A stretch of DNA of 53,216 bases from Candidatus Woesearchaeota archaeon (GCA_964612685.1 CAZTCF010000004.1:1-53216); one strand, 5' to 3'. Shown: positions 30,462-51,000, counted from the stretch's first letter. Numbers and translations are program-made. Notes: a model not told the origin generated them from the sequence alone.

Positions 30462-31169
30462 ATGGAAAACATAACTAAGACAGACGAAAAGTATATCTTC
30501 AGGGAGAGTATTGAAGATAGTTTAGCAAATGCTATAAGAAGATATGTTGGACAAATTCAAATTGCTGCAATAGATGATGTAGAAATATCAAAAAATGATT
30601 CTCCTCTTTACGATGAGACTCTAGCTCATAGATTGGGTTTAATTCCTTTAAAACAAAATTCAAAAAAAGAGGGGAAAGTAAAATTAGCCTCTCGAGAGAA
30701 AGGGATAGTTTACTCTGGGTCATTAAAGGGAGACTTTGAAGTGGTTTATGATAAAATACCATTAACATTATTAGGTGAAGGACAAGAAATAGAATTGTCT
30801 GCGAATATAAAGGTTGGAGTTGGAAAAGATCACGCTAAATTTTCTCCAGGCATCATGAATTACAGAGAGGCTTCAGAAATATATGCAGATAAGGAAATCG
30901 TTGAGAAAATAAGAGTAATGTTTCCAAACATAGAAACCAAACAAAAAGGGGACAAATATATGATATTGGACAATGGGTATACTGAAATTACAGATATATG
31001 TGAGGGGCTTGCTGAAAAATATAATAAAAAAATTGAGATAAAAAACACTGGAGAGATGATAATTACTTTAGAATCATTTGGACAAATGGAAGCAAAGAGT
31101 ATATTTAGTAAATCTATTGAAGCTTTAAAGAAAGACTTATCTGAACTTGGAAAGAAGTTTAGTAAATAA
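30462..31169 (+). CDS. rpoD: RNA polymerase subunit Rpo3 (D)
   Basis: ANAIRR, NDSPLYDETLAHRLGLIP, HAKF, ESFGQ. No Cys cluster of the Fe-S domain. Confidence 0.96.
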   Translation: MENITKTDEKYIFRESIEDSLANAIRRYVGQIQIAAIDDVEISKNDSPLYDETLAHRLGLIPLKQNSKKEGKVKLASREKGIVYSGSLKGDFEVVYDKIPLTLLGEGQEIELSANIKVGVGKDHAKFSPGIMNYREASEIYADKEIVEKIRVMFPNIETKQKGDKYMILDNGYTEITDICEGLAEKYNKKIEIKNTGEMIITLESFGQMEAKSIFSKSIEALKKDLSELGKKFSK

Positions 31170-31284
31170 ATAAAATTATAATTAAATAGAAGGCTTATTT
31201 TTTAAAGAAATATATATGAATATATTTTCATATGTTTTTAGAAAAAAAATGATAAATCATAAAGAGATGTCCTTTAAGTTCTCA

Positions 31285-31452
31285 TTAATAACTAAGCACA
31301 TCATTTATCAACTCGAATTTGAGCAAAGCATAATGATAAGTAACCAGTATTTGAAGAATCAAAACAATTCCCAAAAGCATAACTAAGATTACAGGCATAT
31401 ATTCCCAAACAAAGTTAAAGAAGAATCCAATCTTCATCCAAATTGTTTTCAT
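31285..31452 (-). CDS. 55-aa single-TM protein (not in ORF track)
   Basis: Hand translation MKTIWMKIGFFFNFVWEYMPVILVMLLGIVLILQILVTYHYALLKFELINDVLSY; AGGAGG Shine-Dalgarno upstream. Confidence 0.7.
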   Translation of the reverse strand: MKTIWMKIGFFFNFVWEYMPVILVMLLGIVLILQILVTYHYALLKFELINDVLSY

Positions 31453-31500
31453 AGTTGATTCCTCCTATAAATTTTAAATCTAGAAAATTAATATTAATTG

Positions 31501-31541
31501 ATTATATCTTGTTCTGCTTAGATGCAGATTATTGTATTCAA
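31501..31541 (-). repeat. Island motif copy A (promoter-like, internal hairpin)
   Basis: TTGAAT ACAATAA TCTGC ATCTAA GCAGA ACAAGA TATAAT. Confidence 0.8.
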
Positions 31542-31548
31542 AGAAAAA

Positions 31549-31598
31549 GAAGGCTCCTGCGAAAAGAGAGTTATGGCAAAAGAAATGCAAGAGCCTTC
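31549..31598 (-). terminator. Stem-loop plus T-tract preceding motif A
   Basis: GAAGGCTCTTGC...GCAGGAGCCTTC followed by TTTTTCTT. Confidence 0.65.
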
Positions 31599-31650
31599 AA
31601 AATCACACAATTAAGTGTAGGAAGAATTTTTGGTAAATCTAATTTGAGAA

Positions 31651-31902
31651 CTAATCACTTCTCTCACCTCTTTTTTTACAAGAATAAATAAGGTCGGCGA
31701 TAAATGAACCTATCATACCAAGAAAAGCAAGTAAAGTTATTATGCTCCATGCTGTAAACAAGGAATGTCCAAAAGAGTATCCTCCTTTGTAAGGTTCTCC
31801 AAAGATCTTGAAAAGGATAAAATCAATTATTAGCAATGCAAGAAAGATTATAGCTAATTTCTTGCTTAAACCCCCTCCTTTTATTGAATTTGGTAATTTC
31901 AC
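31651..31902 (-). CDS. Hypothetical 2-TM protein
   Basis: GTG start with AGGAGGTGA SD; two hydrophobic segments. Confidence 0.65.
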   Translation of the reverse strand: MKLPNSIKGGGLSKKLAIIFLALLIIDFILFKIFGEPYKGGYSFGHSLFTAWSIITLLAFLGMIGSFIADLIYSCKKRGERSD

Positions 31903-31921
31903 TACTCACCTCCTTTCTGAG

Positions 31922-32413
31922 TTAATTAAAATCTCCATTAAATGAAACTGGCTTATCCTGAGAAACTTCAATCTTAAAGTAGTCTGGCATATCAGAGAGT
32001 TTTACATTCTTTTCAGGTAGTCTTTTAATGTTCTTAAAGAGAATTTTAACTCTCGTAACTTTACTTTCTTCTATGGTAAGAGGAAAGGTAGTATCCAGCG
32101 TTGAAACACGGACAGAAAAGTTATACTCTCCAGGACGTTTAGCGATAAATAATGAGGTTTTCTCTAATGTGAGATTGCCTCCAGGAAGATGTCCTTCGTA
32201 GAATTTCTCTCCTTTGAGAGTTAGGAAGTTAATACGTTCAATAAATGTACTATAGATTGAATAATTGAATTCACTATCTCCTTCTCCTGGCAGATAATAA
32301 AATTCTACATACCCTTTTGGAGATCCACTAGGAACATTGTCAATAACTTTAACCGGAGAACATCCAGTAAAAAGAATGACAAAAATTGAGGTTAATAAAA
32401 AAAATGATTTCAT
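31922..32413 (-). CDS. Putative lipoprotein
   Basis: MKS-hydrophobic-FTGC lipobox, AGGAGG SD, beta-rich mature part. Confidence 0.75.
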   Translation of the reverse strand: MKSFFLLTSIFVILFTGCSPVKVIDNVPSGSPKGYVEFYYLPGEGDSEFNYSIYSTFIERINFLTLKGEKFYEGHLPGGNLTLEKTSLFIAKRPGEYNFSVRVSTLDTTFPLTIEESKVTRVKILFKNIKRLPEKNVKLSDMPDYFKIEVSQDKPVSFNGDFN

Positions 32414-32464
32414 GCGTTTCCTCCTATTTTTAAAATTAAAAAATAAATAAAGTACTAAAACAAA

Positions 32465-32614
32465 TTAAGCACGTATACGCTTATTCTTTTCTCTATCCAT
32501 AACTTGGTGTTTCCGATTGTACCTCTTTGTCTTTTCAACCTTCTCTGGGTTAAGCAGAGCAATCTGAGGAATCTCTTTTTTTCTGGACTTCGTATTTTTA
32601 ACCGATTTATTCAC
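32465..32614 (-). CDS. 49-aa basic peptide, ArfA-like motif (not in ORF track)
   Basis: GTG start after GGAGG; MNKSVKNTKSRKKEIPQIALLNPEKVEKTKRYNRKHQVMDREKNKRIRA. Confidence 0.6.
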   Translation of the reverse strand: MNKSVKNTKSRKKEIPQIALLNPEKVEKTKRYNRKHQVMDREKNKRIRA

Positions 32615-32659
32615 AGCTAGATCCTCCAAAATTAAAATTAAACAACAGTAAAAGTAAAT

Positions 32660-32694
32660 AAAACCCCCGAAAGGGTAATCTTCTCGGGGGTTTT
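32660..32694 (-). terminator. Intrinsic (bacterial-type) terminator hairpin
   Basis: AAAACCCCCGA...TCGGGGGTTTT inverted repeat with T-tracts on both sides. Confidence 0.8.
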
Positions 32695-32720
32695 TCTAAG
32701 ACAAGGGGAAACATAGGGTG

Positions 32721-33233
32721 TTACCTTTTACGTATCTCATCGCCATTCTGATCAAGGACCCAGAATTTATTCCCGCTTGCTTCAACCAAAAGAGTTGGAA
32801 TATTGTCAAACGGAGGGGTCCCGGCAGGAGATTCTTTCAATATCCAAACCTTCTCATCGGGTTGCCTGTGAAGAAAATACTCATACAAATTCAACACCTC
32901 AAGCTGAAAGGTAGGAAACTTCGTCACAACAGATGGAAACAGATACTTAACGAGATAACGCTCTTCCGCAAAATCAGTAAACTCAAGGGGAAACAAGGAA
33001 ACACGAAATTCTGTTTCGTTCGATATGAACTTCTCCTTGTCAACCTGGACTGTTATAACTTCCCCTGGTTCGAGTTGAGAAACAAGAGATATAAATCCCT
33101 TGATAAGTACCTGCTCGCTTTGCTTTGGCAGCTGGGGTGGGGGAGGAGGAGTTTCGACAACAGCCTCTTTTTTCTTACAACCTGCTCCTAGAGCAAGTAA
33201 AAAGATTACTACTAAAAAAACAAACTTTTTCAT
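32721..33233 (-). CDS. Putative lipoprotein with Pro-rich linker
   Basis: MKK-hydrophobic-LGAGC, then ETPPPPPQ. Confidence 0.78.
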   Translation of the reverse strand: MKKFVFLVVIFLLALGAGCKKKEAVVETPPPPPQLPKQSEQVLIKGFISLVSQLEPGEVITVQVDKEKFISNETEFRVSLFPLEFTDFAEERYLVKYLFPSVVTKFPTFQLEVLNLYEYFLHRQPDEKVWILKESPAGTPPFDNIPTLLVEASGNKFWVLDQNGDEIRKR

Positions 33234-33351
33234 ACGCGTAAGAATTAAAAGTTAAAAACTAAAAACTAAAAACAATTTGTCACGTTGGGTGTTCAGCCCT
33301 TTTTGAACAATTTCTTTAAACATTTTTTAATATTAAGAATAAAATAAGCAG

Positions 33352-33390
33352 AGTATATGTTGTTCTGTTTAAACAGAAGATTATTTTCAA
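33352..33390 (-). repeat. Island motif copy B
   Basis: TTGAAA ATAATCT TCTGT TTAA ACAGA ACAACA TATACT. Confidence 0.8.
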
Positions 33391-33393
33391 AAG

Positions 33394-33425
33394 AAAAGGA
33401 TATCCCACAAAGGAGGTATCCTTTT
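33394..33425 (-). terminator. Stem-loop plus T-tract preceding motif B
   Basis: AAAAGGATAC...ATATCCTTTT followed by CTTTT. Confidence 0.65.
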
Positions 33426-33433
33426 AATTATAC

Positions 33434-33628
33434 TTACATACCAGGAATTTCTGGTAAATCAACAAATTGCCATATTGACAATATTATTGAAAGTGTGATA
33501 AATGCGAATATAATCAAGAAGATGATTATATTTTTGCTTACCCTCTGATAAGAATCTTTCTTATTTACTTTTATTATTAGTAATATTGAGAAGATAAGCA
33601 TAACCAAAATAATAATAACTGCCGCCAT
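33434..33628 (-). CDS. Small 2-TM protein (64 aa)
   Basis: Start moved to MAAVII (33628), 8 nt after the upstream stop. Confidence 0.65.
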   Translation of the reverse strand: MAAVIIILVMLIFSILLIIKVNKKDSYQRVSKNIIIFLIIFAFITLSIILSIWQFVDLPEIPGM

Positions 33629-33636
33629 AACTTTAA

Positions 33637-34281
33637 TTATTTTGTTTGCATTGCCATAAGATATAAACAGGAGCCTGAAGCGGCCATCCAACAAGCCATT
33701 CCGTCAAAATCGCAAAGGAATTTAAGTACATCTATTGAATCGTAATGGTTTCTTATTGCCCTGTAACAAGCAAAGAAGTTTATTCCCTTAACTTGCTGTT
33801 CGAGGTATTTATCCGGCATCGGATAAAAGTCATTGGTTTGAATGATGTTATCAATAACAAGATATTCGTCGTGCAAGAAGTTTTCAAAGTTAACTCCATA
33901 CATACTAACATTGCCTGTTTTTGATTGTAAATCAAACCGGGTAAAATCAATCAGATTGATAAAGTATATGTCTCCGTCTGGAAGTAATCCGGGTTCCATC
34001 TTTACAATCTGTAATTCTGCCACTTTTACAGTATCACTTTCGGTATAAATATAATATGGTAAAAACATTTGCACAGTCTCGTCATTTTCATTCTTTTGAA
34101 TAGTGCCTGTGCTGTACATCCCATACCGACTAACTGAACATTCATATTTTGTCCAGTCCGGGGAATTAAGAAACTCTCGAATCTCCCTTGGTTGAGGATC
34201 AGGAGGATTCAATTCGTTTTTCTCACAACTATTTATAGCTATAAGAAAAAACATCGTTAAAAAAATAGATAATTTTTTCAT
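33637..34281 (-). CDS. Bacteroidota-style lipoprotein
   Basis: Start moved to MKKLSIF; lipobox INSC followed by EKNE; Cys-rich C-terminus. Confidence 0.75.
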   Translation of the reverse strand: MKKLSIFLTMFFLIAINSCEKNELNPPDPQPREIREFLNSPDWTKYECSVSRYGMYSTGTIQKNENDETVQMFLPYYIYTESDTVKVAELQIVKMEPGLLPDGDIYFINLIDFTRFDLQSKTGNVSMYGVNFENFLHDEYLVIDNIIQTNDFYPMPDKYLEQQVKGINFFACYRAIRNHYDSIDVLKFLCDFDGMACWMAASGSCLYLMAMQTK

Positions 34282-34326
34282 TTGACTTTCACATTTAGTT
34301 AAACAATAAAATTCATAATTAATCGG

Positions 34327-34366
34327 AGGATATGTTGTTCTGCCCAAAGCAGAGTATTGCATTCAA
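34327..34366 (-). repeat. Island motif copy C
   Basis: TTGAAT GCAATAC TCTGC TTTGG GCAGA ACAACA TATCCT. Confidence 0.8.
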
Positions 34367-34375
34367 AAGAAAAAA

Positions 34376-34428
34376 GGATTCCCCCGAGGAAATTGGACAG
34401 TTTTACGGGTTATACAACGAGGGAATCC
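34376..34428 (-). terminator. Stem-loop plus T-tract preceding motif C
   Basis: GGATTCCCTCG...CGGGGGAATCC followed by TTTTTCTT. Confidence 0.65.
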
Positions 34429-34492
34429 CAAATCATAAAAATCAAAAAGCGCATCAAAAGCCTTTTTCTAACCAACTTCACAAATGGTTACC

Positions 34493-34870
34493 TTAATAAT
34501 GCAGGCTAATGATTACAATTAAAATTAGCACAGCTGAAATAACGGTCCCAACTATACCTCCAAGATAATAAAAAAGAATAGAAGTAGAATCTATACCTAT
34601 TTCTTTAAAAAAAGGAGTTTCATCCTTTAGTGAAGCATATCTCTTGGGTTGCCTAATATATTTCCATACTGAAAATAATATAATACAAATCAAGGGATAA
34701 AATGGAAGAAACAAGAGAGAGATTACCCAGAGGTTTTGGTATTTGTAAAAGAAATTATCAAAGAATAGCAATGAAAGGACAAAGTATGCGCCTAAAACTA
34801 TTCCGGATACAGAAAAGAACAAACGATGTTTGCCTTTAATCTGTCCAATTAAATTACAAACTATTTTCAT
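34493..34870 (-). CDS. Hypothetical 3-TM protein
   Basis: Three hydrophobic segments. Confidence 0.7.
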   Translation of the reverse strand: MKIVCNLIGQIKGKHRLFFSVSGIVLGAYFVLSLLFFDNFFYKYQNLWVISLLFLPFYPLICIILFSVWKYIRQPKRYASLKDETPFFKEIGIDSTSILFYYLGGIVGTVISAVLILIVIISLHY

Positions 34871-34890
34871 GGCATTAAATATTAATGAAG

Positions 34891-36486
34891 TTAATAATAA
34901 GAAATAACAAGTTTAAGTCTTCTACTGGAATATGGATGATCTCCGCTATAAATTTCACCCCACACATAGTTTGCCCCCGCTGAAATAAGGAAACCATAAT
35001 TAGCTTTTCTCCCAAGAACCCAATCCTGGACAAGATAAGTAACATCCCAAGAATGCCAAGAATAAACTCCCTCAGGTATGAAATCTATCTTTTCTATAAA
35101 CTCGCTTTCTGGCTGATTCGTCCAAGAAACTTCTGATTCGCTCCAGGGACCTTTTAGTTCGCTAAGGGCTATTGAGGGATTCACGCCTTGAACGTTACTT
35201 AAAGCATAACCATATACTTCTAACCTAGCAGAAAAAATCACTGCGTTTAGGGGTATCTCTCCAAGAGGGAATTGAAAGAGCATTCTATTCATTTGTTTAG
35301 AACCGCTTAAATCCCCATCAGATACCACACTAATTAAAGAATCGTTAGGAAAGTTATTGTAAAAAGAAGCGCCATTAGAGTAAGTAGATATTTGTATCCC
35401 GGCATCTTTCCCCAAGGGTCCTGGTTGAATTGTTAAATTTCTTAGGGGAAAATTATTATTCATCCTTTGCTGTAATCTAAGTAAATCTTCCGTTCTATAC
35501 TCTAAATCCTCCACATAACTTGCATATTTATCTAAGCCCATACTTGCTAAGGAGATTAGACAAGAAGTTGGATCGGGGCTTGAAATACAAGAATATGCTG
35601 TTGAGTTTAGTTTGTAATTATCAACAAAATCTGTAAACCCGTTTTGAACATTTGCGTCATCAAAGAAATTATCTGCCATTTTAAGAAAATAATTGCCGCA
35701 TGTCCAAAGTGCAAGAGGAATCGCAAAACCTCCTGATATAAGAGCTGCTGCTCCAGAAGTAACGCATGGGATTGCTCCAACTATTCTTCCTGTCCACCGA
35801 ATAAATTCTGCCTTTGAGAGGGTTGAGTTGTCTGATTTTAAATTAGATGGCCAAACAAAATCAGTTTGAATCTCTCTAACAACTTCAATATCTCCAGAGG
35901 GAAAAAGAATACCTAAATCTACTTTGTTCCCATTAAAATTACTGAACATAAATATAAAGTCATCGGCAAATACTTTGTCTGGCAAACCTTTATCATTAAA
36001 CATAATCCCATAGTCCTTTTTATTTTTGAAAGAATGATAAAGTACAAACTTTGGGAGAGAATTCTCTTCATCAATAAAAAAATATTCTTCTTTACCAACA
36101 ACCCAATAATCCCAATTAGATTCGTTGTGTACATAAACCGCGCTGAAATCTGGAAGGGGTTTTTTAATGGAGGTGAAAGGGATTTCTATGTAAGTTAAAT
36201 CATCCGAAATAATAGGTACTGAAGAAGAAAAGAATGGGACCAAATCTTCATCTAAAATCTCAAACTTTTGCAACCCTTCTGGAACTCTTGAAAGATAAAA
36301 ATATCCCTTTAAATCTGTAAAAGTGAGTATGTTCCCAGAAACCCTTATTCCTAAATTAGGAAGAGGGTGGGTTTTGTTTCCAAGAAAAACATATCCTTCA
36401 AGTTCTCCGAAGCCGCTTGGAGGAGGATCCTCATCACAGGATATTGCAATAAATATCCAAAGTGAAAAAAAGATAATCTTTTTCAT
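34891..36486 (-). CDS. Lipoprotein with carboxypeptidase-regulatory-like N-domain and C-terminal DNRLRE/CBM96-like domain
   Basis: AISC+DED lipobox; TDLKGYFYLSRVPEG; KDA...RMLFQF...SARL...W.E.EVSWTNQP...WDVT.LVQDW...NYGFLI. Confidence 0.75.
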   Translation of the reverse strand: MKKIIFFSLWIFIAISCDEDPPPSGFGELEGYVFLGNKTHPLPNLGIRVSGNILTFTDLKGYFYLSRVPEGLQKFEILDEDLVPFFSSSVPIISDDLTYIEIPFTSIKKPLPDFSAVYVHNESNWDYWVVGKEEYFFIDEENSLPKFVLYHSFKNKKDYGIMFNDKGLPDKVFADDFIFMFSNFNGNKVDLGILFPSGDIEVVREIQTDFVWPSNLKSDNSTLSKAEFIRWTGRIVGAIPCVTSGAAALISGGFAIPLALWTCGNYFLKMADNFFDDANVQNGFTDFVDNYKLNSTAYSCISSPDPTSCLISLASMGLDKYASYVEDLEYRTEDLLRLQQRMNNNFPLRNLTIQPGPLGKDAGIQISTYSNGASFYNNFPNDSLISVVSDGDLSGSKQMNRMLFQFPLGEIPLNAVIFSARLEVYGYALSNVQGVNPSIALSELKGPWSESEVSWTNQPESEFIEKIDFIPEGVYSWHSWDVTYLVQDWVLGRKANYGFLISAGANYVWGEIYSGDHPYSSRRLKLVISYY

Positions 36487-36510
36487 TTGAATTTAAATTT
36501 TAAAAGTTAT

Positions 36511-37182
36511 TTAAAAATTGTAAACAAATCCTAGAGACCAGAGCAACCTATTTTTTGTATCTGGCTCGGTTTGTATATACTCTGTAAATGATCCATTAAT
36601 CAAGATATTCTCGTTTAATTTAACTGTTTTTTTCATCCCAAACATATGGGAAGGAGAATTTTTTTCATAATGGAAAAGAACATAGTAGAAATCTACTCCA
36701 TTCAAATAAGAAGGAGAGTAGGTAAATTGCTGGAAGGAAAATATGAAAATTATATCCTTCAAGGAAGCTTCTCCAACTTCGGGTATACCTGCAGACCATC
36801 CAAACCAGTGATTTGTGATTAACTGATTTTTAAATAGTTTAAAGCTAACCATCGGACCTGCCCAAGGTAAATTATGATAAATCCCTCCACTTGGCTGGAG
36901 AATAATATTCTTGTTTATTGGAATATCATAAACAATCTGGCCCAAAACTCCATTGTAGCATGCCCATATTGAATTCTTTCCGTTTGAGAGGAATATATCT
37001 GCATTCAGTCCGGAACTTAAGGGAGTTTCTCCAGTAGTGAGTGCAACAGAAGTAACTTTCCATCTTGAATCTATAGAAGATTCCTGCCCAAAAATTAAGC
37101 AATCTGAAAATGCAAGAAGAAGAGCCGACATAATGATAATAATCATAATTGTCCTATAACTGATATTTTGTAAATTTTTCAT
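36511..37182 (-). CDS. Secreted beta-strand-rich protein, possible outer-membrane beta-barrel
   Basis: Signal peptide, alternating strands, C-terminus WSLGFVYNF. Confidence 0.55.
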   Translation of the reverse strand: MKNLQNISYRTIMIIIIMSALLLAFSDCLIFGQESSIDSRWKVTSVALTTGETPLSSGLNADIFLSNGKNSIWACYNGVLGQIVYDIPINKNIILQPSGGIYHNLPWAGPMVSFKLFKNQLITNHWFGWSAGIPEVGEASLKDIIFIFSFQQFTYSPSYLNGVDFYYVLFHYEKNSPSHMFGMKKTVKLNENILINGSFTEYIQTEPDTKNRLLWSLGFVYNF

Positions 37183-37232
37183 CTTTTTATTTATTAATTG
37201 GATAATAATTTCAAATCATTCTAGGAGAAGCT

Positions 37233-38048
37233 CTATTTTCTTTTTTTAGAATTATTTGTAGAACTTTTTTCTTCATGAATTGCATCGTATATATCTTTAG
37301 AATATTTATCAAGTATCTTTTCATAAATTAAGTTCACAAAAAGATTAATTCCTAACAGAGAAAAATAGACTATAGAGCAGATTAACGCCCATTTAAAGTT
37401 CTCTTGAAGAAGAGCAACAACTATTGAGAAGATAGAAAATATTGCTAGTAAGGTTCCCCCAATATAGGAAGAAGACAATATTGCTAATCTTTTTATTTCT
37501 GAAATCTTCTCAATAAACCAACAGAGAGTAAAGATAAGTATTATACCAAGATTAATTATTAACCCAAGAGTTCCTTTGCTTAAGAAAGAAATTTCATACT
37601 CTTCTCTTAGATAGATTATATTTCCAATTTTCTTTCCATAAACTTTGGTGTTAATCTCGTCTATTTGTGGCCACTTTTCTTTATTCCTTTTGTGACTAAT
37701 TGTAGAAAAAGCAAGTATCTCCTCTCCGTTGCCACAGAAATAAACTTTAGATACTGTATTCTCCCCTTGCTCCGAATAAAGATTAAGTGCATCTCCGGGG
37801 TAGTCTACATAAACACTATCAAGAACTATATCTTCCTCTGAAAGATAAGGGAAATTAATTTGGGGATTATAAAATAAATGAAAAATCCATCTATCTCTAG
37901 TATCTGAAGGGTAATTCATCTTCCAGGAATAACCTAGAGGATCTCTACAATCCTGGGCAGCAAGCTTACTTATGCCCGCAAGAATAAAGAATAATACCAT
38001 AAATATAATCATAGCAAAGAAACGGGCAAGTTGATTTGTTGTTTTCAT
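37233..38048 (-). CDS. Hypothetical protein with signal peptide, soluble domain and 3 C-terminal TMs
   Basis: Hydropathy pattern only. Confidence 0.65.
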   Translation of the reverse strand: MKTTNQLARFFAMIIFMVLFFILAGISKLAAQDCRDPLGYSWKMNYPSDTRDRWIFHLFYNPQINFPYLSEEDIVLDSVYVDYPGDALNLYSEQGENTVSKVYFCGNGEEILAFSTISHKRNKEKWPQIDEINTKVYGKKIGNIIYLREEYEISFLSKGTLGLIINLGIILIFTLCWFIEKISEIKRLAILSSSYIGGTLLAIFSIFSIVVALLQENFKWALICSIVYFSLLGINLFVNLIYEKILDKYSKDIYDAIHEEKSSTNNSKKRK

Positions 38049-38066
38049 GACCTTAAATTTTAAAAG

Positions 38067-38471
38067 TTATTTAATTTTGGACAATTTTGAATACCGATCA
38101 ATAAGTTTCATCCCTCCTTCTTTAAGAAACATTTCATATACGAGGTAAAGTACAAAAAGGTTGGCTAATATTGAACCAATAAGAATTACGAGAATAGAAG
38201 ACAAAGTATTTGAAACTCCAGATAGAGCTATAAAGTAGAGGCAAGAATAGCCTAGAATGCCTTTGAAGAGATATGCATAATAATATCCCCACTTATAGAT
38301 TTTACCTGAACTGCTACCTGAGTAAAGGAAGGGTTCAATAAGACATATGTAAGTATATATGTGTGCAGGAAAAAGAGGCAATAGCATACCAAGTATCCAA
38401 GTTAGTTTTCTAGATTTCAAAGAAAAAGCATATGAAATCCATTGATTGAGGTTTAAAAGAAAATTTTTCAT
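38067..38471 (-). CDS. Hypothetical membrane protein
   Basis: About 3 hydrophobic segments. Confidence 0.65.
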   Translation of the reverse strand: MKNFLLNLNQWISYAFSLKSRKLTWILGMLLPLFPAHIYTYICLIEPFLYSGSSSGKIYKWGYYYAYLFKGILGYSCLYFIALSGVSNTLSSILVILIGSILANLFVLYLVYEMFLKEGGMKLIDRYSKLSKIK

Positions 38472-38953
38472 GACTTTAAATTTTTAAGATTAATATTAAT
38501 AAATTAATTATTTGCAATTATTTTGTATTCGCTTTTTAGGTTAGTTGTTTTCGGTGTTTTCAGGTATTTCGCGTGCGCGAATTCGCGTGTAAATAGGAGG
38601 TATATTTTGGGGTAGATATTTAGAGTTATTCTAAGGGTGTTTCGGGGTATTTCAGGTGAAATGTCGTATTGATTTCTAGGTAATTTGGTAGATTTATAGA
38701 GGTATTTCTCGTGTTCTTTTGTCTTATGCAATGTCTTGTTCGACAGAGCAATTGTTTCACATTGTTTAAACAACAAAGTGATTTGCACATCAAATTTAAT
38801 TCAAGACAATATATTATTCAGCATTTGTAATCTCAATAAATTGAAATTGTTTTTACTGGTCTTGTATATTATTTTGTATTTTATTTGTAATGGTTTTGTG
38901 CTTTGTGTGTTTGATTTGTTTTATTTGGGGAATATGATTAATAATGAGGTTAT

Positions 38954-41020
38954 TTATTTGTGTATTTTATTTGTATTTAATTTAATTATTTTTTTCCAGC
39001 CTTTATCGCTTCTTTCTTCTTGTACTTTTATTAATCCTTTAGAAAGTAACTTGTTTTTGAGGATATTCCCTTTTCTTGTAGATAATCCAATTTTATTGTA
39101 TAATTCAACTGTGCTATTCTTATGATAAGGGTTCTTTTCTAGAAAATCTATGAATCTTTGTTCTTCTGAGGAGCTTCTGTAAAATGAATCGTCCTCAGAG
39201 CTAACTTCAATAACTTGGTTATGAATTATTTCTTCATTGGTTGTATTATTAGGTTCTTCTCTAAGATGATCTAATTGATTAGTCTTAATTGAGTTAAGAT
39301 AATTGGACTTAGTTAGTATTCTCCCAAGAGCATAATTTCCTGCTAAAAAGACATCTGACTCCTTGTAGAGTTTTTCAGAAAGTCCTTCTGAAAGTATTTT
39401 TTCAGCTTCCTTTATTGTTTTTCCTTTTTCAACTTGTTTTTTTATAAAATCATAAAGAACATCTTGAGTACTAGTTAATCCTGTTATTTCCTTTTCATAC
39501 CCTCTATCTTCTATTCTTTCTATTATTTCGAGATTGCTCTCTTCATTTTCAGTTATTTCGGGTATTTCTAAGCTTATTTCTATTTCATTTTGAGAGGGAA
39601 TTAATGCTTCTCTAAATTCAGGGTCGCTTTTCTCAACTTCTACCCCTTGGATAACACAATCCATTTTACTTGCGATATTCTCATCTGAAATTGTAGAATT
39701 TCTTAAATCAGTATAAGGGACTTTTATTAGGAAAGGAGAGGTGTATCTTTCTGAAAGTTTCACAACTGCGAATCCCACAGGTAATTGAGTAAATATCTCT
39801 CTTTTCTCTGGCAATTGCATTATAGAACTAACATCGTAAACATCCTGTGGTAATTGCTGTTGGAATGCGATATGGCAAGCGCTGTTTCCTTTCACAGTAT
39901 CACTCAGTTTTGAAATATGTTGATCTAAGCAGATTAAACAAGTTCCATATTCCCTCATTTCTCTATAAATCATATCTGTAACAGATTCCGAAACAAAGTA
40001 TGTTTTACTCTTGAGAAAGATATTATGTGCTTCATCAACGAGTATAGCATGATTAAATGTTTCTTGATTCTTCTGAGAATTAGCTTTTTTTAATTTGAAA
40101 ATATAAGTTAAAATATATTCTGCAAAAAATTTCTTTTCTACATTTCCTAGAGAATTTAATTCAAAAATAACCTTTTTATCAAATAACTCATCAACAGATA
40201 AGCTTTTCTTTCCATCATAATTTATTACTTTACCAAAGTCTCCGAATGTAAGGACTGTTGCAATTCTAAGAGCACTTTCATACCAAGTTGCTTCTCTTCC
40301 TCTTGCCTCTCTTGATTTTATCTCAAGCATTTTCTTAATGTGCATCCAGTTTGGATAGTGCTGTGAACCCTTGTAAACTTCCCATCCTTCAAAGACTTCA
40401 TCTAGTGTTTCTAAAAGTATTTTGTGCACTCCAAAAGAAACACAGAAGCTTTCTGTAAGCAAATCACATAAAGTGTTTATCCATTCCTTGGGGGAAACCC
40501 CTTTTGGAGGAATATTTATATTTGTTTTAAAGAGGTTGCTTATAGAATTATTTCCAACTGTAAAACACATTATTGAGGGATCTGTATGGATTAAAGATCT
40601 GAAACTCTTTTTCCAATCGAAAACTAAAAAGGGTTTATCTTTCTCTATAAACTTTTGAAGAATATTTAATGCCAAAGTTGTTTTTCCACTCCCACTCATG
40701 CCGCTTATACAAACGTGCCTTGGCCAGTCTTGTTCCCTTAGTGCAAATGGGAAAAGTTCTTTATTTGCATAGATTACTTTTGAAAGTTCATACTCTCCTG
40801 AAACTGCGCTTTGTTCAGGAGGTTCAAGCAAAACTTTTTTATCTAAGAACTTTCCTAAGTGTTTTTGATATAAAGCACTTAAGATTTGAACTATCTGGCT
40901 TCTCTCTTCAGGAGATTCAGACATTGAATATCTAAAATAAAGTTCATCTATTTTATTTCCAAGTATTGGTTTTAATTTAGTGCTAATTTCTTCTATAGAA
41001 AGAGACCTTTGAAGAGTCAT
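38954..41020 (-). CDS. HerA/FtsK-like (DUF87) P-loop ATPase with C-terminal winged-helix-like domain
   Basis: HVCISGMSGSGKT, VFDWK, ILVDEAH, REMREYG; acidic linker; STVELY..GLS.RKG..K..L..KGLI. Confidence 0.85.
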   Translation of the reverse strand: MTLQRSLSIEEISTKLKPILGNKIDELYFRYSMSESPEERSQIVQILSALYQKHLGKFLDKKVLLEPPEQSAVSGEYELSKVIYANKELFPFALREQDWPRHVCISGMSGSGKTTLALNILQKFIEKDKPFLVFDWKKSFRSLIHTDPSIMCFTVGNNSISNLFKTNINIPPKGVSPKEWINTLCDLLTESFCVSFGVHKILLETLDEVFEGWEVYKGSQHYPNWMHIKKMLEIKSREARGREATWYESALRIATVLTFGDFGKVINYDGKKSLSVDELFDKKVIFELNSLGNVEKKFFAEYILTYIFKLKKANSQKNQETFNHAILVDEAHNIFLKSKTYFVSESVTDMIYREMREYGTCLICLDQHISKLSDTVKGNSACHIAFQQQLPQDVYDVSSIMQLPEKREIFTQLPVGFAVVKLSERYTSPFLIKVPYTDLRNSTISDENIASKMDCVIQGVEVEKSDPEFREALIPSQNEIEISLEIPEITENEESNLEIIERIEDRGYEKEITGLTSTQDVLYDFIKKQVEKGKTIKEAEKILSEGLSEKLYKESDVFLAGNYALGRILTKSNYLNSIKTNQLDHLREEPNNTTNEEIIHNQVIEVSSEDDSFYRSSSEEQRFIDFLEKNPYHKNSTVELYNKIGLSTRKGNILKNKLLSKGLIKVQEERSDKGWKKIIKLNTNKIHK

Positions 41021-41479
41021 TTAATCCTCACTCAAAATATCATTTAGTTCCTTCATCCTTCCTTCTTTCTCGCTAAGTTCCTTTTCATATGCTCTAAGCT
41101 CTTTTTTCAGGAGAGCGATATCTTTCCAGCAGTCAATTTTCTCGTTAAGTTGAAGTTCAGAAATCTCAACTTTCTTGTTTCTAAGAGCATTCTTTTCAAT
41201 CATTGCCTCATTTTGTCCAAGAGCCCTTAGAGTACTTTCATTTCCAATTATAAGATTATTAATTTCTGATTTTATATCTTCACCCTCTTTTATAAATTCT
41301 AAACTAAGTTTCTTTCTTTCTTCAATTAGATATCTTATCTCTTGAATTGCTTTTTTTAAGGAATCTATTCTTTCTTGCCCAACTGTTTCTAGGAAGGTTC
41401 TATCTGAAAAACCTGTTATTTCGGGTTTTTCAAGCCCTATGAAAGGGGTTTTATCTTTAGATAAGCTTCTTAATTCCAT
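41021..41479 (-). CDS. Coiled-coil protein abutting the ATPase gene
   Basis: Heptad-rich K/E sequence with EKIDCWKDIALLKKELR; stop directly adjoins the ATPase ATG; archaeal TATA upstream. Confidence 0.8.
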   Translation of the reverse strand: MELRSLSKDKTPFIGLEKPEITGFSDRTFLETVGQERIDSLKKAIQEIRYLIEERKKLSLEFIKEGEDIKSEINNLIIGNESTLRALGQNEAMIEKNALRNKKVEISELQLNEKIDCWKDIALLKKELRAYEKELSEKEGRMKELNDILSED

Positions 41480-41595
41480 GATTAATTAGTAGTAACATTA
41501 TTTATAAACCTTGCTATTTTATACCTACTATTTAGTTACATCAATTTAAAAATAAAGGTTTTTATATAGCCCTATTTTTGTAACAATATTAGTTT

Positions 41596-41679
41596 GTGGG
41601 TGTGCCGGAGCGGTCAAACGGGACAGACTCAAAATCTGTTAGCTTAGTGCTTACCTAGGTTCGAATCCTAGCACCCACA
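41596..41679 (+). tRNA. tRNA-Leu(CAA)
   Basis: GTGGGTG/CACCCAC acceptor, ACAGA-CTCAAAA-TCTGT arm, long variable arm. Confidence 0.95.
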
Positions 41680-41814
41680 TAGGGCAAGATTTATAAACCG
41701 ATTCTAATTAACAAATTTATCTGTGAGCCAAAAGGAGCTCCCAGGTTCTGCGAGCGCAAGCGAGAGTAGAATTAGTTTAATTCTATATCGTTTAAAGTCT
41801 TGTTTATACGAAAA

Positions 41815-42186
41815 ATGAAGTCAAAAACAAAAATATCCAAACAAATGGAAAGGAAAAGTAATTCCGAACTAATGGAAACAATTATAGCTGGCAAAAAACA
41901 GGAAGCCTGGCTTGGAGTTAGTGGGATTCTTTCAAGTCCAAGGAGAAACAGAATATGTATAAATCTTGAGCAAATAAACAAAGATTCCAAGGCAGGGGAG
42001 ATAATTGTTATCCCTGGCAAAGTACTTTCTCAGGGAGATATTGATAAAAAGATAAAGGTTGTTGCTTTTAACTTTTCAGACAAGGCAAAAGAAAAATTAT
42101 TAAGTGCTAAATGTGAAGTTTCAAGTATATTAGATGAAATTAAATCAAATCCTTCTGGGAAGGGAATGAAAATATTGAAAAAATGA
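41815..42186 (+). CDS. rpl18e: 50S ribosomal protein L18e
   Basis: PRRNR..INL..I, VIPGKVL..G, AFNFS; ATG start at 41815. Confidence 0.93.
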   Translation: MKSKTKISKQMERKSNSELMETIIAGKKQEAWLGVSGILSSPRRNRICINLEQINKDSKAGEIIVIPGKVLSQGDIDKKIKVVAFNFSDKAKEKLLSAKCEVSSILDEIKSNPSGKGMKILKK

Positions 42187-43867: not shown

Positions 43868-44287
43868 TTAATTTTTCTTTATACTTAATTTTTCCAGTTT
43901 GTCTTGAACATGATTAAATAAAGTAGTTGAAACCAGAGGTTTGTGTTTTCCCTCGTGAATTTGTCCCCCAAATCTGACTTTTCCCACATATGCGAAGTTC
44001 CTCAATACCTTTTTTAATCCGTTAACTGAAAGTCTATGTTTTGAGGCAAGTATGGATAGATTAATATCTGGCTGAAGAAACTCTTCAAAAATCTCTTCTA
44101 CTTCCCTTGAATTTTGTGCAGGGATTAATATTTTGTCGCGTAAATCCCATTCGTACCCAAAGGGGGCTCTCGACATATGCTTCCCTTCTGAAAACTTTTT
44201 TATCATACCTTTTTTCTGGGATTCTCCTCTATTTTCTTTGGAATCATGTTCTATTTCAAACTCATGTCCGCATTTTGGGCATTTCAT
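43868..44287 (-). CDS. Zn-ribbon plus serine-recombinase DNA-binding ('Recombinase') domain, no catalytic domain
   Basis: CPKC; APFGY; LRNFAYVG; GKHKPLVS..LF..VQ. Confidence 0.8.
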   Translation of the reverse strand: MKCPKCGHEFEIEHDSKENRGESQKKGMIKKFSEGKHMSRAPFGYEWDLRDKILIPAQNSREVEEIFEEFLQPDINLSILASKHRLSVNGLKKVLRNFAYVGKVRFGGQIHEGKHKPLVSTTLFNHVQDKLEKLSIKKN

Positions 44288-45117
44288 TTCATAACCTCAT
44301 CTATAGGTGATTTAATTTTTTTAAGTTCTTCTCTTGAAATATGGGTATATATCTGGGTTGTCGAAAGATCACTATGTCCCAACAACTCTTGTATTTTTCT
44401 TATATCTGTTCCATTCTCTAAAAGATGAGTTGCAAAACTATGCCTTAATGTGTGACAATGAACATCTTTATTTATCCCTGCCCTTTTCCCTGCTTTAGAA
44501 ATAATCTTTTGAAGATTTCTTTCAGATAATCTTCCTTTTGGTCCCGTAAACAAATATTCTTTTTTTTCTTCTTTTTGTTTTTCAACTTGAGTCTTTAAAT
44601 CTTCTAAAAGAAATTCTGGAAGGTTAAACACCCTATCCTTTTTACCTTTTCCCTGACGAACACTTCCAATTTTCTCCTCGAAATTTAAATCTTTAACTTT
44701 TAAATTAACTAACTCTGAAACTCTAAAACCACAAGCATACATAAAAGATACCATGGTCTTAGATTTTTTTGTATCTATGGAATTGATAAGTGTCTTAACT
44801 TCTTCTTTTGTTAGAACAGAAGGTATCCTTTTTTCTTTTTTGGGACGTTTTATACTAAGGGTTATATCTTTATGAAGAATATTTGTGAAAGAGTACCTTA
44901 TTGCAGAAAGAAAAACTATGATTGAAGAAGAGGAAGCTTCTCCAAGCTTCTCAACAAGATAGGACTTTAAGTCGTCTTCATTTATTTCTTGAGGTTCTTT
45001 TTTGATATAATCAAGAAATTTTCTGTTACAATCAAGATAATTTCTAAGAGTATATTCAGAGTTCTTAGATATCTTTAATTCTATTTCAAGTTTCTTTAAA
45101 AAATCTTCTGAATTCAT
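44284..45117 (-). CDS. xerA: Tyrosine recombinase XerA
   Basis: N-terminal SAM-like domain; GFRVSE, GKGKKDR, HTLRHSFATH, LGH, TQIYTH; the whole catalytic set is intact. Confidence 0.93.
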   Translation of the reverse strand: MNSEDFLKKLEIELKISKNSEYTLRNYLDCNRKFLDYIKKEPQEINEDDLKSYLVEKLGEASSSSIIVFLSAIRYSFTNILHKDITLSIKRPKKEKRIPSVLTKEEVKTLINSIDTKKSKTMVSFMYACGFRVSELVNLKVKDLNFEEKIGSVRQGKGKKDRVFNLPEFLLEDLKTQVEKQKEEKKEYLFTGPKGRLSERNLQKIISKAGKRAGINKDVHCHTLRHSFATHLLENGTDIRKIQELLGHSDLSTTQIYTHISREELKKIKSPIDEVMK

Positions 45118-48047: not shown

Positions 48048-51000
48048 TTAGAATATCTCTACATAAAATATTGCGGCTCTCGTGTCCGTAGTTCTATATT
48101 CTCTTAATTTGGCAGGTACTCTTATCTCATAGTCATACGTTCCATATGTTCCTTCTTCATTTTTATTTATTGGCGAAATAAAAATTAAATCTTCCTTATC
48201 TGCTAAATCAAATTCTCCATTTGTATCATCAGAATAATCCCATAATATTCCCGTAAAAAAATTAGAATTATTTGTAGAATTAATTACCGGAACATCGTGT
48301 ATGGAAGTGTCAAAAGAATAAATATTTGAAACATATTTTGGAGCCCCAAAATCAGTATATGTGAGATAAATTGAATCCGCATATCCTGTAGAATTTAAAA
48401 GAGTGTCGACCTCTTCAAAATCAGATGTGCTATCTGAGTTTAATTTTGTTTTTCCAAGAGATTGTAGATTTCCCCAAGAGATGTAAGAATCATAGTCTGT
48501 GATGTAAACATTTCCATGATTAAAATCTTCTGTGCTCCAATTGGTTAATCTAAGCTCTAAAGAATCGGCCAGCACCAAATTACTAGAAGATAAAACATCT
48601 CCGTAAAAAAAGTGCCAAGAACCAATATCAATGCTCTTGCTTGCTTTATTGTTAGATTCATTCAACTCAATAAAACTTCCATTAGTAGCTAAGGGAGGAT
48701 CGACAACGATAAATATTTCTGATGGTCCCATCTGTGAAGACCAATCTTTGGTGATATTTATCTGACTAAACATAGAAAGATTTGTATATATATCTGAACC
48801 AATTTTAACCCCTCCCAAATCTGGATCTCCCTCGTAAAAGCTGATAGTTACATTTCCAATATCTACTCCTGCAAGATTATGTATTGTTGCAGTTATCTTT
48901 ATAACTTGATTTTCTTTTGGATTTGAATTATTAAAAAATATTTCTGATGAATTAACAAAAAAGTCTGGATAAGTAAGGTTAAATTTTCTCAATTCGCTTA
49001 TATTTGTATTTTTCATTTGGTCCCAACAAGTAACATTCCAGGAGTGTTCTCCCTGTCCCAATACGGAAGTAAGAACATATTCTCTTTTTGAAATATTGCT
49101 TGTCACCCAAACATTAGGCCTTCTTACTATTCCATCTATGGTTAGATTACATTGAAGAATATTATCCAAAACATCTATTGCTGTCCAATTAAAATAAACT
49201 CTGTCTTCATTGAAATCTATGCCAGAATTATTTTCTGGAGAGTTCAAAATTATTAAAGGAGGAGAGAAATCCATGGAGAAATATTTGTGAGTTGCATTTG
49301 CATATGAAGGGATAGGATTATTTGTATCAAAACATCCCACCGTCCAATTATGTAATCCTTCTGTTATACCCGAAATAGTAAAATTAGGATTTATAATTAA
49401 TTGAGCAGAAGATTTTGATTCATTTGGAACATCGTCTATGTATAAAGTACAATTGTTGATTATCTGTGCATCTTCTGCTAAGTAGTGGAAAGTGACTGAA
49501 CTACCAAAACCATAAAAATCATCATCGGGGGTATAAAGAGTGATCTGAGGAGGAGCATATACTGTAAAATTTCTTGTTTCACTTGTGTTGGAATTCTCAG
49601 CATTGTCTATACATTCGATTGTCCAATTGTAACTTCCATCATCCAACAAATACGGGTATATTTCTGGAGTTGAATTTTCTGCAATAACTTGATCATAAAA
49701 AATATCATTGATGAAAATACTACAAGAGATGTTTTCATTTAAATTGTCTTCCACTGTAAAATTAAATAAAACTTCATTCCAATCTAAGGTTTCGTTTGGT
49801 TCAGGAAAGTTAAGAACAATATTTGGTGCTTCTGTGTCTATGTATAACGTCCTATTTTCATCGCTACCCATTACTCCTAAAGAATCTACACAATAAACAT
49901 TCCAGGTATAATTCCCTTGAGGAAGAACCTCATTGAAATAATTAGAATTATCGTTAATTATAGGTGTGGAATTAACAGCTACAAAAGAATCATCTATGTA
50001 TAATGAACAATTAACAATGTCCTCTTCATATTTGTAAGCATAGTACTCAAATTCTATTTCTGTATAATTAATCCATAAATCAGGTTCGGGAGATATCAGA
50101 ATAACTTCGGGTGGAGCAAAAGTAGTAAATGATCTTGTTTCGCTTGTATTTAAATTTCCAGATAAATCCGAACAAGAAACATTCCAAAGATGTTCTCCTG
50201 AGATTAAATCCCTTGTAATCAAATTTATGCTATTATTTTCTAAAATTAAAGGAGTTATATTATTATCTACAGTAAAATTACATGTTAAATTTTGTGCAAG
50301 GTTATCTCTAGCTGTAAAGTTAAAAGTTATTTGTGAAGAATAAATTACCTCTTCATCTTCGGGGTAAGTTAATTCTATTTGTGGAGAGGAATTGTCTCTA
50401 TAAAAGAATCGTGTTTCTGAATTGTTTTGTAACCCATATGTATCAAAACATCTTACATCCCAGCTATAAAAACCATCAGATAAATCGGTTATTGAAAAAT
50501 TTGTTAATTGATTGTTTAATGGAGAGTGAGCTACATCTTTGAAAGAATTATTTATGTAAAGAGAACAATTCGAGAGATTAGTGTTATCTGAAGGAGTGTA
50601 TTGTAATAAAATATTTTCTTTAAACCAAGTTAAATTTTCTGTAATTAAAGAAATCTTTGGAGATTCTCTAATGGTTATCTCTCTATTTTCACTGATATTA
50701 TAATGTCCTGCAGAATCTACGCAACTTACATTCCAAACTTTTAAACCATCTGTTAATCCAATTATAGGTCTGCTTGTATTTGCATTTCTTGTTACAACTA
50801 TATTATTATCATATTTCTCACCTACGCTTAAATTACAAATTAGCTCTGAATCAAGATTATCTGTAGCATTAAAATAAAAACTTAAATAAGAGGATTGTGA
50901 AATTGTTGAAGTCTCTGGATTTAAGAGATAAACAATAGGGTTTTGTGTATCTACATAAAAAGATCTTGTAGAAGCAAGTGTACTATATCCTCCATTATCG

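Follow-up and report, generated by a model that had tools for sequence, protein, structure and literature searches.

Short repeated DNA modules that lie among small or variable genes have been described in several systems. In T4-type phages, promoter-early stem-loop (PeSL) modules flank small variable open reading frames (ORFs) in plastic regions; they pair a sigma-70 early promoter, with hexamers 17 ± 1 nucleotides (nt) apart, with a stem-loop and are thought to express the ORFs and to give the homology by which they are shuffled. Repetitive extragenic palindromes (REPs) and bacterial interspersed mosaic elements (BIMEs) are short conserved intergenic hairpins that occur by gene ends, in many copies, genome-wide and in both orientations, and the promoters of the phage N4 virion RNA polymerase are hairpins with a 5- to 7-bp stem and a 3-nt loop that this dedicated polymerase reads on extruded single strands. 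In eukaryotic rDNA, the promoter-proximal terminator of RNA polymerase I (T0) combines a T-rich release element with a Reb1/TTF-I site at a fixed distance; it sits ahead of the promoter that follows, is functionally part of the unit downstream, and protects that unit from read-through. Integron cassettes are short, co-oriented units of varying content, each with a structured attC site of free loop length (a 57- to 141-nt imperfect palindrome with extrahelical bases) at its 3' end, the last cassette included, and integron cassette arrays have been reported in Archaea (PMC9668308). Archaeal dif sites consist of 11-bp near-identical arms around a 6-bp center (PMC2958812). Here, we describe element Y, present in three copies in a 53,216-nt stretch of DNA from a Candidatus Woesearchaeota archaeon (GCA_964612685.1 CAZTCF010000004.1:1-53216; we refer to the whole of this stretch as the window).

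Y is a DNA element not described before; it shows strong conservation and delimits gene units at their front edge. Our preferred reading, to which we assign a probability of about 0.4, is that Y is a lineage-specific cis-regulatory module that acts upstream of promoters and doubles as a recombination joint within an array of surface-protein genes of DPANN archaea. These archaea are ultra-small, uncultivated symbionts, and to our knowledge, their gene regulation and the variation of their presumed host-contacting surface proteins are essentially unknown.

The window is archaeal DNA of the Woese-/Pacearchaeota type within DPANN, with a G+C content of ~30%. Genes for RpoN, L21e, an Rpb4-like protein, S13, S4, S11, and RpoD occupy the plus strand from 27.1 to 31.2 kb, those for tRNA-Leu, L18e, L13, and S9 follow from 41.6 kb on, and the nearest relatives are metagenome-assembled genomes (MAGs) labeled Woesearchaeota, Pacearchaeota, or Nanobdellota. 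Between rpoD and tRNA-Leu, the minus strand holds genes for a 152-amino-acid (aa) protein and an ATPase, a 482-nt noncoding gap, and 14 small genes. All contigs compared below are metagenomic, and related loci are designated by L and a number.

Structure and distribution of element Y

The original prediction, made from the window alone, named three minus-strand copies with loops of 6, 4, and 5 nt (copies A, B, and C), of which copy B carries TCTGT/ACAGA in place of TCTGC/GCAGA. Each of these particulars is borne out by the sequence, and a covariance model (R1) built on 23 related Y copies recovers all three copies, as follows.

31490..31553, minus strand: Y copy A (covariance model, 69.3 bits, E value 6.7e-09)
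31529-31553, minus strand: T-tract and box 1 of copy A (TTTGAATACAATAA), read from the sequence
31524-31528 and 31513-31517, minus strand: stem of copy A, TCTGC/GCAGA, with loop ATCTAA
31504-31512, minus strand: box 2 of copy A (ACAAGATAT)
33341..33402, minus strand: Y copy B (covariance model, 71.4 bits)
33373-33377 and 33364-33368, minus strand: stem of copy B, TCTGT/ACAGA, with loop TTAA
33355-33363, minus strand: box 2 of copy B (ACAACATAT)
34316..34378, minus strand: Y copy C (covariance model, 64.5 bits)
34349-34353 and 34339-34343, minus strand: stem of copy C, TCTGC/GCAGA, with loop TTTGG
34330-34338, minus strand: box 2 of copy C (ACAACATAT)

The consensus of Y is a T-tract, box 1 (TTTGAAAAT-AATAA), a 5-bp stem (TCTGY and RCAGA) enclosing a loop, and box 2 (ACAASATAT). 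The 13-nt cores of the three copies (31504-31516, 33355-33367, and 34330-34342, minus strand) match CAGAACAASATAT exactly and constitute the region's top direct-repeat family; across the 53-kb window, the model scores the three copies at 64.5 to 71.4 bits and the next-best match at 24.6 bits. The repeat is real and nonrandom and, as had been proposed, partitions a co-oriented gene array. A “degenerate fourth copy” claimed at 38728-38760 fared otherwise: it is without a complementary 3' arm and yields no model match at an E value of ≤10, and we reject it as a copy of Y; it is part of another conserved noncoding element, containing the motif CTGTCG-N4-AGACA, that is treated below.

Recurrence in other genomes, the absence of which would have counted against the original prediction, was found with the covariance model, which returned 44 matches in 352 kb of DNA that included ten further contigs fetched via homologues of the ATPase. 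These represent 38 distinct copies (some of them orthologous and not independent) on ~25 contigs. Over the 38 copies, the core (TCTG...CAGAACAA.ATAT, AAT, and the TTGAA-N8 spacing) is nearly invariant, with TTGAA lying 8 nt ahead of the stem in 29 of 31 scorable copies. The loop is A/T-rich and free in length, measuring 3 nt in one, 4 nt in seven, 5 nt in 19, 6 nt in five, 7 nt in two, and 8 nt in two of 36 copies. Four of the five stem pairs show no variation, and the closing pair covaries (CG in 20 copies, TA in 13, TG in 2 to 3, and CA in 1). A correlation between this pair and a variable base of box 2, seen in the first 23 copies, would have reduced the covariation to subfamily structure, but it was lost with 38 copies: TA, for example, occurs with G, A, or T in box 2 and CG with C, T, or A, a free combination that two subfamilies do not explain. 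The hairpin itself is of low thermodynamic stability, with folding energies of −4.5 to −6.7 kcal/mol and z values between −0.6 and −2.1, and one copy (L007, 962-1012) has lost it and kept both boxes.

Relative to the window, the genomes that carry Y have ATPases of 68 to 88% identity and RpoD proteins of 70 to 77% identity, and the intergenic DNA flanking Y cannot be aligned between loci. The invariance of the core while neighboring proteins diverged and adjacent intergenic DNA became unalignable supports selection on Y.

The association of the parts of Y does not derive from the search pattern, in that a metagenome scan requiring neither TTGAA nor the T-tract found 21 loci, 17 of which carry both. 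The first, loose pattern (TCTGY-N3-8-RCAGAACAASATAT) gave, among the matches listed, 119 genome blocks and 33 IMG/VR loci; the real copies are four, on three Woesearchaeota MAG contigs, and share flanks beyond what the pattern required, and the viral matches proved to be chance or coding. We found no true Y copies in IMG/VR, the phage collection, or the plasmid collection, and a BLAST search of the modules against phages and plasmids gave no match. An Rfam 15 scan of positions 30500-42000 at a permissive E value returned a tRNA and chance-level matches, none of them on Y. The confinement of Y to the array, described below, refers to the 352 kb of DNA searched with the model.

Y at the front of gene units

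Arrays contain from zero to four copies of Y, and all 44 model matches lie inside arrays and are co-directional with the genes; in ~150 kb of flanking core genome, no Y was found. The distance from box 2 to the next ATG is 35 to 69 nt in 24 of 30 cases and 100 to 216 nt in the remainder. In the 10 arrays whose sequence extends to rpoD, the stretch separating rpoD from the last array gene never contains Y. Because it stands before genes and never past the last one, Y is a 5' element of gene units and not a 3' element.

About 30 of the 38 copies are preceded by an 8- to 15-bp stem that ends in or next to the T-tract. These stem-loops (P1), in which a G+C-rich stem is followed by a T-run on the sense strand, are predicted intrinsic-type terminators. 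At one locus (L159, 10353), the T-tract of Y is the end of the upstream ORF and there is no hairpin; at another (L176, 3277-3328), Y heads the array, before the first gene, without an upstream terminator hairpin or T-tract. The stem-loops of the window, together with a second repeated module (X), are as follows.

31549..31598, minus strand: stem-loop P1 before copy A, with a 12-bp stem (GAAGGCUCUUGC/GCAGGAGCCUUC) and a 26-nt loop, leading into the T-tract (−20.6 kcal/mol, z −4.49)
33394..33425, minus strand: stem-loop P1 before copy B (AAAAGGAUA...UAUCCUUUU), 9 + 4 bp (−12.2 kcal/mol, z −2.90)
34376..34429, minus strand: stem-loop “P1long” before copy C, with a 12-bp stem and a 31-nt loop (CGTTGTATAACCCGTAAAACTGTCCAATTTCCTC) (−18.7 kcal/mol, z −1.95)
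34441..34484, minus strand: module X, TTTGTGAAGTTGG...GGCTTTTGATGCGC-TTTTT, a second repeated post-gene element

A stem-loop and T-tract thus precede each copy, as the original prediction held, but its description of the stem-loops as unrelated does not extend to copies A and C, whose modules recur in other genomes. The P1 module of copy A has homologues in L048 and L175. The loop of P1long is conserved in at least five other genomes (L048, L163, L164, L165, and L170), and its stem of 10 to 12 bp changes by compensatory substitutions; this combination would exceed the needs of a plain terminator. Module X, of the form (CCTCC)TTTCTGTGAAGTTGATTAGRGCAAGGCTGAT..GCGCTTGC-TTTT, comes right after stop codons in at least nine loci, with or without Y (34441-34484 in the window; L048 at 1672 and 1958; L154 at 241; L160 at 711 and 3455; and L163, L164, L165, L169, and L170). 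Array terminators are not always paired with Y, since the stem-loop and T-tract that follow p170, the gene downstream of copy B (32663-32690, minus strand, and ~1510-1550 in L048; AAAACCCCCGA...TCGGGGGTTTT), are followed by no Y.

Several other identities for these modules were rejected. Coding accounts (an antisense ORF over X-P1long-Y or a small sense ORF starting from TTGAAA) disagree with loop lengths that are not multiples of three and with stems that covary as helices; C/D-box or H/ACA small RNA readings of X and Y meet degenerate boxes, wrong spacing, and no Rfam match; and a miniature inverted-repeat transposable element is not indicated, as no terminal inverted repeats are present from the start of X to the end of Y.

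Promoter-like signals closer to the genes are common to array genes with and without Y. Aligned on their starts, 117 array genes (L174-L183) are T-rich at −24 to −22, have AA at −21/−20, and show TTAAAA-type runs nearer the ATG; the proximal leader signal, AATATTAAC, ends near −18. Its geometry is that of the host's leaderless genes and tRNA promoters, in which an 8-bp TATA element lies ~21 nt before the start, and suggests that each array gene may have its own proximal promoter, with Y situated 6 to 90 nt upstream. About 20% of array genes carry GGAGG instead, often followed by ACAAAAAA, and in about one-third of Y-linked genes, GGAGG lies 28 to 65 nt past box 2. In the GGAGG genes, transcription directed by the nearby proximal element would exclude the Shine-Dalgarno sequence from the mRNA, and it may therefore start within Y. 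Separately, a near-identical 27-nt leader (TTAAATAACTTTTAAAATTTAA...) stands ahead of two array genes in the window (36488-36514 and 38048-38074).

The gene units between copies of Y vary among genomes, and the breakpoints fall at Y, in agreement with the proposal that the repeats delimit exchangeable units. Some homology blocks start within a few nucleotides of the 5' edge of Y and run into the downstream gene (L040-L159, L154-L163, L164-window, and L159-L162); others extend from the stem-loop modules ahead of Y as far as the end of box 2. The clearest unit is 930 nt long (33400-34329), comprises p214 (the gene downstream of copy C), p64, and their terminator, and is bounded by copies C and B. 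It is present in the window and in L040/L175 and absent from L164/L174, where a single Y joins the flanks; that single Y, upstream of the p170 gene, is orthologous to copy B, and in L174 (ATPase 88% identical), it aligns to both copy C and copy B. The DNA on the two sides of Y also reassorts independently. In the window, p214 is preceded by X-P1long-Y, and in L175 by a module of the type that, in the window, precedes copy A and a gene other than p214; in the p170 family, Y is kept in at least four different upstream contexts, with homology beginning at the T-tract. Crossovers therefore occur at or in Y.

The array and its chromosomal setting

The features of the locus, apart from Y and its stem-loops, are as follows.

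31285..38471, minus strand: the array, hypervariable and made up of 14 small genes (ORFs) for membrane or secreted proteins
31285..31452, minus strand: gene 3' of copy A, encoding a 55-aa membrane protein, with a GGAGG Shine-Dalgarno sequence, 51 nt past box 2
32721..33233, minus strand: p170, 3' of copy B, encoding a lipobox-like secreted protein, 121 nt past box 2
33637..34281, minus strand: p214, 3' of copy C, encoding a lipobox-like secreted protein, 48 nt past box 2
38472..38953, minus strand: conserved, G-poor, noncoding “gap element,” which holds the rejected fourth copy
38954..41479, minus strand: head of the locus, with genes for a 152-aa coiled-coil protein (p152) and a 688-aa DUF87/HerA-FtsK-type ATPase (Pfam DUF87, weak CedD match)
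30462..31169, plus strand: rpoD, which closes the convergent S13-S4-S11-rpoD operon and forms the array's fixed distal limit

The array proteins have almost no Pfam, NCBIfam, or PHROG matches, the exception being a CBM96/DNRLRE match in a 531-aa protein. The gene content of the array is different in every related locus and consists mostly of singletons, with a few families recurring in other orders; the family most often linked to Y is that of p170 (F1, eight loci).

The setting of the array, on the other hand, is fixed. The layout xerA ... S9-L13-L18e, tRNA-Leu, p152, ATPase, array, rpoD-S11-S4-S13 recurs with the same gene order in all 10 fetched contigs, whose ATPases are 58 to 88% identical; seven of them reach rpoD-S11-S4-S13, and three end earlier. 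These contigs also have a small “Recombinase”-domain gene with xerA and a noncoding gap of 380 to 590 nt between the ATPase and the array of ORFans. The ATPase is a core gene, since it has 751 homologues in Pace-, Woese-, and Nanoarchaeota MAGs, the best 120 of which align over the full length at 56 to 100% identity. An integrated virus or plasmid was rejected, the ATPase and its partner being core genes with conserved synteny and the only PHROG match being to a P-loop, and no tRNA-fragment direct repeat stood out at the array borders. The array, which had been taken for captured foreign DNA, is a native locus with variable content at a fixed chromosomal position in relatives, not a recent foreign island.

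Several array genes (31922-32413, 32721-33233, 33637-34281, and 34891-36486, minus strand) encode bacterial-style signal peptides ending in Cys, with ...LALGAGC-KKK, ...FTGC-SP, and ...AISC-DEDPPP as examples among array proteins, and a 223-aa array protein has the C terminus ...GFVYNF. Together with the CBM96/DNRLRE domain, these traits are unusual for an archaeon and may hint at a cross-domain origin of genes.

The gap element lies between the ATPase and the first array gene in 11 of 11 loci examined, is 380 to 590 nt long, and contains 8 to 11% G. Its invariant blocks are a CA-rich run, a ATTTCAAT..ATTGAAAT palindrome, three to five direct GAAATACC repeats, and a perfect CGCGAATTCGCG palindrome; most of the 11 aligned loci share the small hairpin CTGTCG-N4-AGACA, mentioned above. 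A structured RNA was rejected, as none of 22 predicted pairs shows a compensatory change. Because there is neither covariation nor an Rfam match, the gap element looks like protein-binding DNA, perhaps regulatory or origin-like, rather than RNA.

Within it, at 38757-38781 (minus strand), lies TCACTTTGTT-G(A)TTTA-AACAATGTGA, whose near-perfect inverted arms of 10 to 11 bp are invariant in eight of nine loci aligned and whose 5- to 6-bp center differs between loci, the architecture of a Xer/dif core site. The ATPase gene (38954-41020) lies just upstream of this dif-like palindrome, and its product has, by eye, a C-terminal winged-helix-like tail as in FtsK; a XerA equivalog is encoded 3.5 kb away in every locus. 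These may form a xerA/FtsK-like/dif set adjoining the variable array.

Other genes of note lie farther out. A 139-aa protein consisting of the “Recombinase” domain of serine recombinases alone (43868-44287, minus strand) is encoded directly downstream of xerA, as it is in nearly every related locus (L174-L183); in some of these, a methyltransferase or other gene is inserted between, or fused with, xerA and the “Recombinase” gene. Two loci (L179, 8075-8836, and L180, 8137-8892) have a LAGLIDADG homing-endonuclease gene between L18e and the coiled-coil/ATPase pair, approximately at the position of tRNA-Leu in the window. A few kilobases from the array, a 1,707-aa protein with bacterial Ig-like domains (Big_13 and Big_7; 48048-53171, minus strand), with a 3,922-aa relative in L175, is likely a giant surface adhesin.

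Accounts of Y

In the reading that we prefer, transcription of the upstream unit would end at the T-tract, usually aided by the hairpin of the stem-loop before it. Box 1, the 5-bp TCTGY/RCAGA hairpin, and box 2, at a fixed spacing past the T-tract, would then be bound by a dedicated factor, which would control initiation at the AT-rich, leaderless-type promoter of the downstream gene (a AATATTAAC-type TATA ~22 to 29 nt before the ATG), shield that promoter from read-through, or both. Since the same ~45-nt module stands before unrelated genes, it would also be the homology at which units are exchanged, inserted, and lost; we infer that this recombination is a by-product and not the primary function of Y.

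Two described systems resemble such an arrangement. PeSL modules would be the best functional analogy, one of role and not of homology: Y too is short and repeated, and the ORFs beside it are small, variable, and set in a plastic region. The family membership that the original prediction's comparison invited fails on the defining features, in that Y lies on an archaeal chromosome, its hexamer-like strings are 27 to 29 nt apart, and it has an invariant, covarying hairpin and a preceding T-tract. The polymerase I T0 site offers a roadblock-terminator analogy, in which a T-rich element and a specific downstream site likewise precede a promoter, but its binding protein is known, and the covariation of the Y hairpin has no counterpart there.

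Several observations weigh against the regulatory reading. The promoters are assigned by geometry in DNA that is ~70% A+T, and the distance from Y to the proximal TATA ranges from 6 to 90 nt, a variability not usually seen at archaeal activator sites. That the closing pair covaries around a loop of 3 to 8 nt favors a folded single strand over a rigid dimer on double-stranded DNA; were the T-tract to terminate transcription and the start site to lie farther downstream, the hairpin would not be transcribed. A leader that the proximal TATA would fail to give is required by the genes with a Shine-Dalgarno sequence, which favors Y itself as their promoter. Finally, L177, L179, L180, and L183 have no Y in the array DNA examined, three of these four arrays being incomplete; L179 and L180 have the most distant ATPases (63 and 58% identity), but those of L177 and L183 (73 and 82%) are no more distant than the ATPases of Y-bearing loci. 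The worst fit to a factor-bound control module is the covarying hairpin with its free loop, and it keeps single-strand models alive.

Y may instead be a core archaeal promoter, an alternative that we consider unlikely. Box 1 (GAAAATAATAA) would serve as transcription factor B recognition element (BRE) and TATA element, transcription would start at the CA/TA steps of box 2 some 22 to 24 nt downstream, the palindrome between TATA and start would be an operator or melting element, and mRNA leaders would measure 35 to 120 nt. In the host, the 8-bp TATA lies ~21 to 23 nt before the start, and a 5-nt loop with TTTGAAAA or AAAATAAT as the TATA element would put the start right past the stem, in box 2; the one-third of Y-linked genes with GGAGG require a leader that the proximal TATA cannot supply; and a box 1-like TTTGAAATAAT with no hairpin is also found ahead of the first gene of the array in L183, in L181, and in the window. 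Box 1 lacks, however, the G/C dinucleotide plus TTT with which the genome's clear promoters begin, and most Y-linked genes also carry the proximal AATATTAAC-type signal of genes without Y. Moreover, loop lengths span 3 to 8 nt and are not offset by changes in other parts, so that box 2 stands at no fixed distance from box 1, the spacing fitting an archaeal promoter at a 5-nt loop.

Less probable is that Y acts as RNA, as a processing, stability, or 3'-end signal bound by a specific protein or nuclease in read-through or polycistronic transcripts. The covarying closing pair (CG in 20, UA in 13) with its sense-strand wobble (U-G in 2 to 3 copies versus a single C-A), the hairpin-like freedom of the loop, a stem sequence as invariant as in protein-recognized RNA hairpins, and the co-direction of the entire array would all suit an RNA. 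The hairpin is nevertheless weak, as its folding energies and z values given above attest, Y lies downstream of a strong hairpin and T-tract, where most transcripts are expected to end, and no Rfam match was found. Nor does Y follow the last gene; within the p170 family, it remains linked to the gene that comes after it, and the L007 copy without a hairpin retains both boxes.

We give about as little credence to a dedicated recombination or mobilization site, a miniature attC-, oriT-, or REP-like sequence recognized as a folded single strand by a putative recombinase or HUH nuclease. The p214/p64 unit, bounded by Y and present or absent as a whole, the independent reassortment of sequences 5' and 3' of Y around p214 and p170, the cassette-array look of L162 (four Y in 3.6 kb), the architecture of hairpin, free loop, and conserved 3' flank, and the fixed neighbors XerA, the small “Recombinase”-domain protein, and the HerA/FtsK-type ATPase all speak for it. 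Ordinary homologous recombination between 45-nt repeats would yield the same mosaics, however, and no HUH protein was seen.

Comparison with each model site is likewise unfavorable. Y resembles attC in standing between short, co-oriented units of varying content, with a structured repeat of free loop length, but it lies on the 5' side of units, is missing past the last unit, where attC-type cassettes require a site, and folds as two local hairpins (P1 and the 5-bp P2) in place of one long imperfect palindrome. The complementary R''/R' pair (RYYYAAC/GTTRRRY) was found in 0 of 38 Y regions, searched on both strands from 150 nt upstream to 40 nt downstream (1 of 760 shuffled sequences). The only tyrosine recombinase (44284-45117) is a XerA equivalog (247 bits; cutoff, 220) and scores under both integron-integrase cutoffs (213 < 265 and 137 < 435); no IntI lies beside the array, and this housekeeping-type XerA is a conserved core neighbor that is present also where Y is absent. 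With Xer/dif sites (including pdif modules and integrative mobile elements exploiting Xer [IMEX]), Y shares symmetry of the inner 5 bp on each side, differing outer arms, and xerA as a fixed neighbor, but its arms match at 7 of 11 positions and are symmetric over 5 bp, its center of 3 to 8 nt differs within a genome, and there are one to four copies per array as against a single-copy dif; it is not a Xer-type core. REPs and BIMEs are likewise short, conserved, many-copy hairpins by gene ends, but Y keeps to a single locus and a single strand and has two conserved nonpalindromic boxes in addition.

A more specific form of the recombination account, that Y is the recognition site of a DPANN-specific cassette-mobilizing system acting on the folded hairpin and 3' flank, parallel to attC or oriT and unrelated to them in sequence, seems to us more doubtful still. 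Its context is a locus that also holds the FtsK/HerA-like ATPase, XerA, and the dif-like palindrome; if it were true, Y would serve for the insertion, excision, or transfer of units of surface-protein genes.

It is highly improbable that Y is functionless, an intergenic remnant spread by duplicated leaders, gene conversion, or as a selfish repeat and conserved through recency. Within-genome duplicates with long common flanks do exist (L048 a and b, and L159 at 9168 and 9634), but the core is near-invariant while neighboring core proteins are 12 to 32% diverged, both the T-tract spacing and the stem pairing are maintained, and orientation and locus are strictly confined.

The sigma-70 or phage N4-type hairpin promoter in captured DNA that the original prediction entertained can be set aside: although copy A holds TTGAAW and TATAMT-like hexamers, the signal peptides of the array look bacterial and end in Cys, and N4 promoters have a similar conserved 5-bp stem just upstream of the proposed start, the archaeal nature of the genome on either side of the array and in every relative effectively refutes this account and makes a −35/−10 reading inapplicable; the 27- to 29-nt spacing of the hexamers, correctly noted, applies a bacterial yardstick to an archaeal genome, only ATAT of the “TATAAT” is conserved across copies, a 3-nt loop occurs in 1 of 36 copies, no N4-type single-subunit virion RNA polymerase was found among the window ORFs scanned, and the IMG/VR, phage, and plasmid collections gave no true matches.

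Clade-wide, Y provides a searchable, near-invariant 45-nt flag for the units of transcription or recombination in a single hypervariable locus of surface proteins. As a regulatory site, it would offer the first candidate regulon and cis-code in these archaea and a bait for the binding factor; as a recombination site, it would represent a route of cassette exchange new to Archaea. In both cases, strain-level cassette turnover can be tracked in metagenomes via Y.

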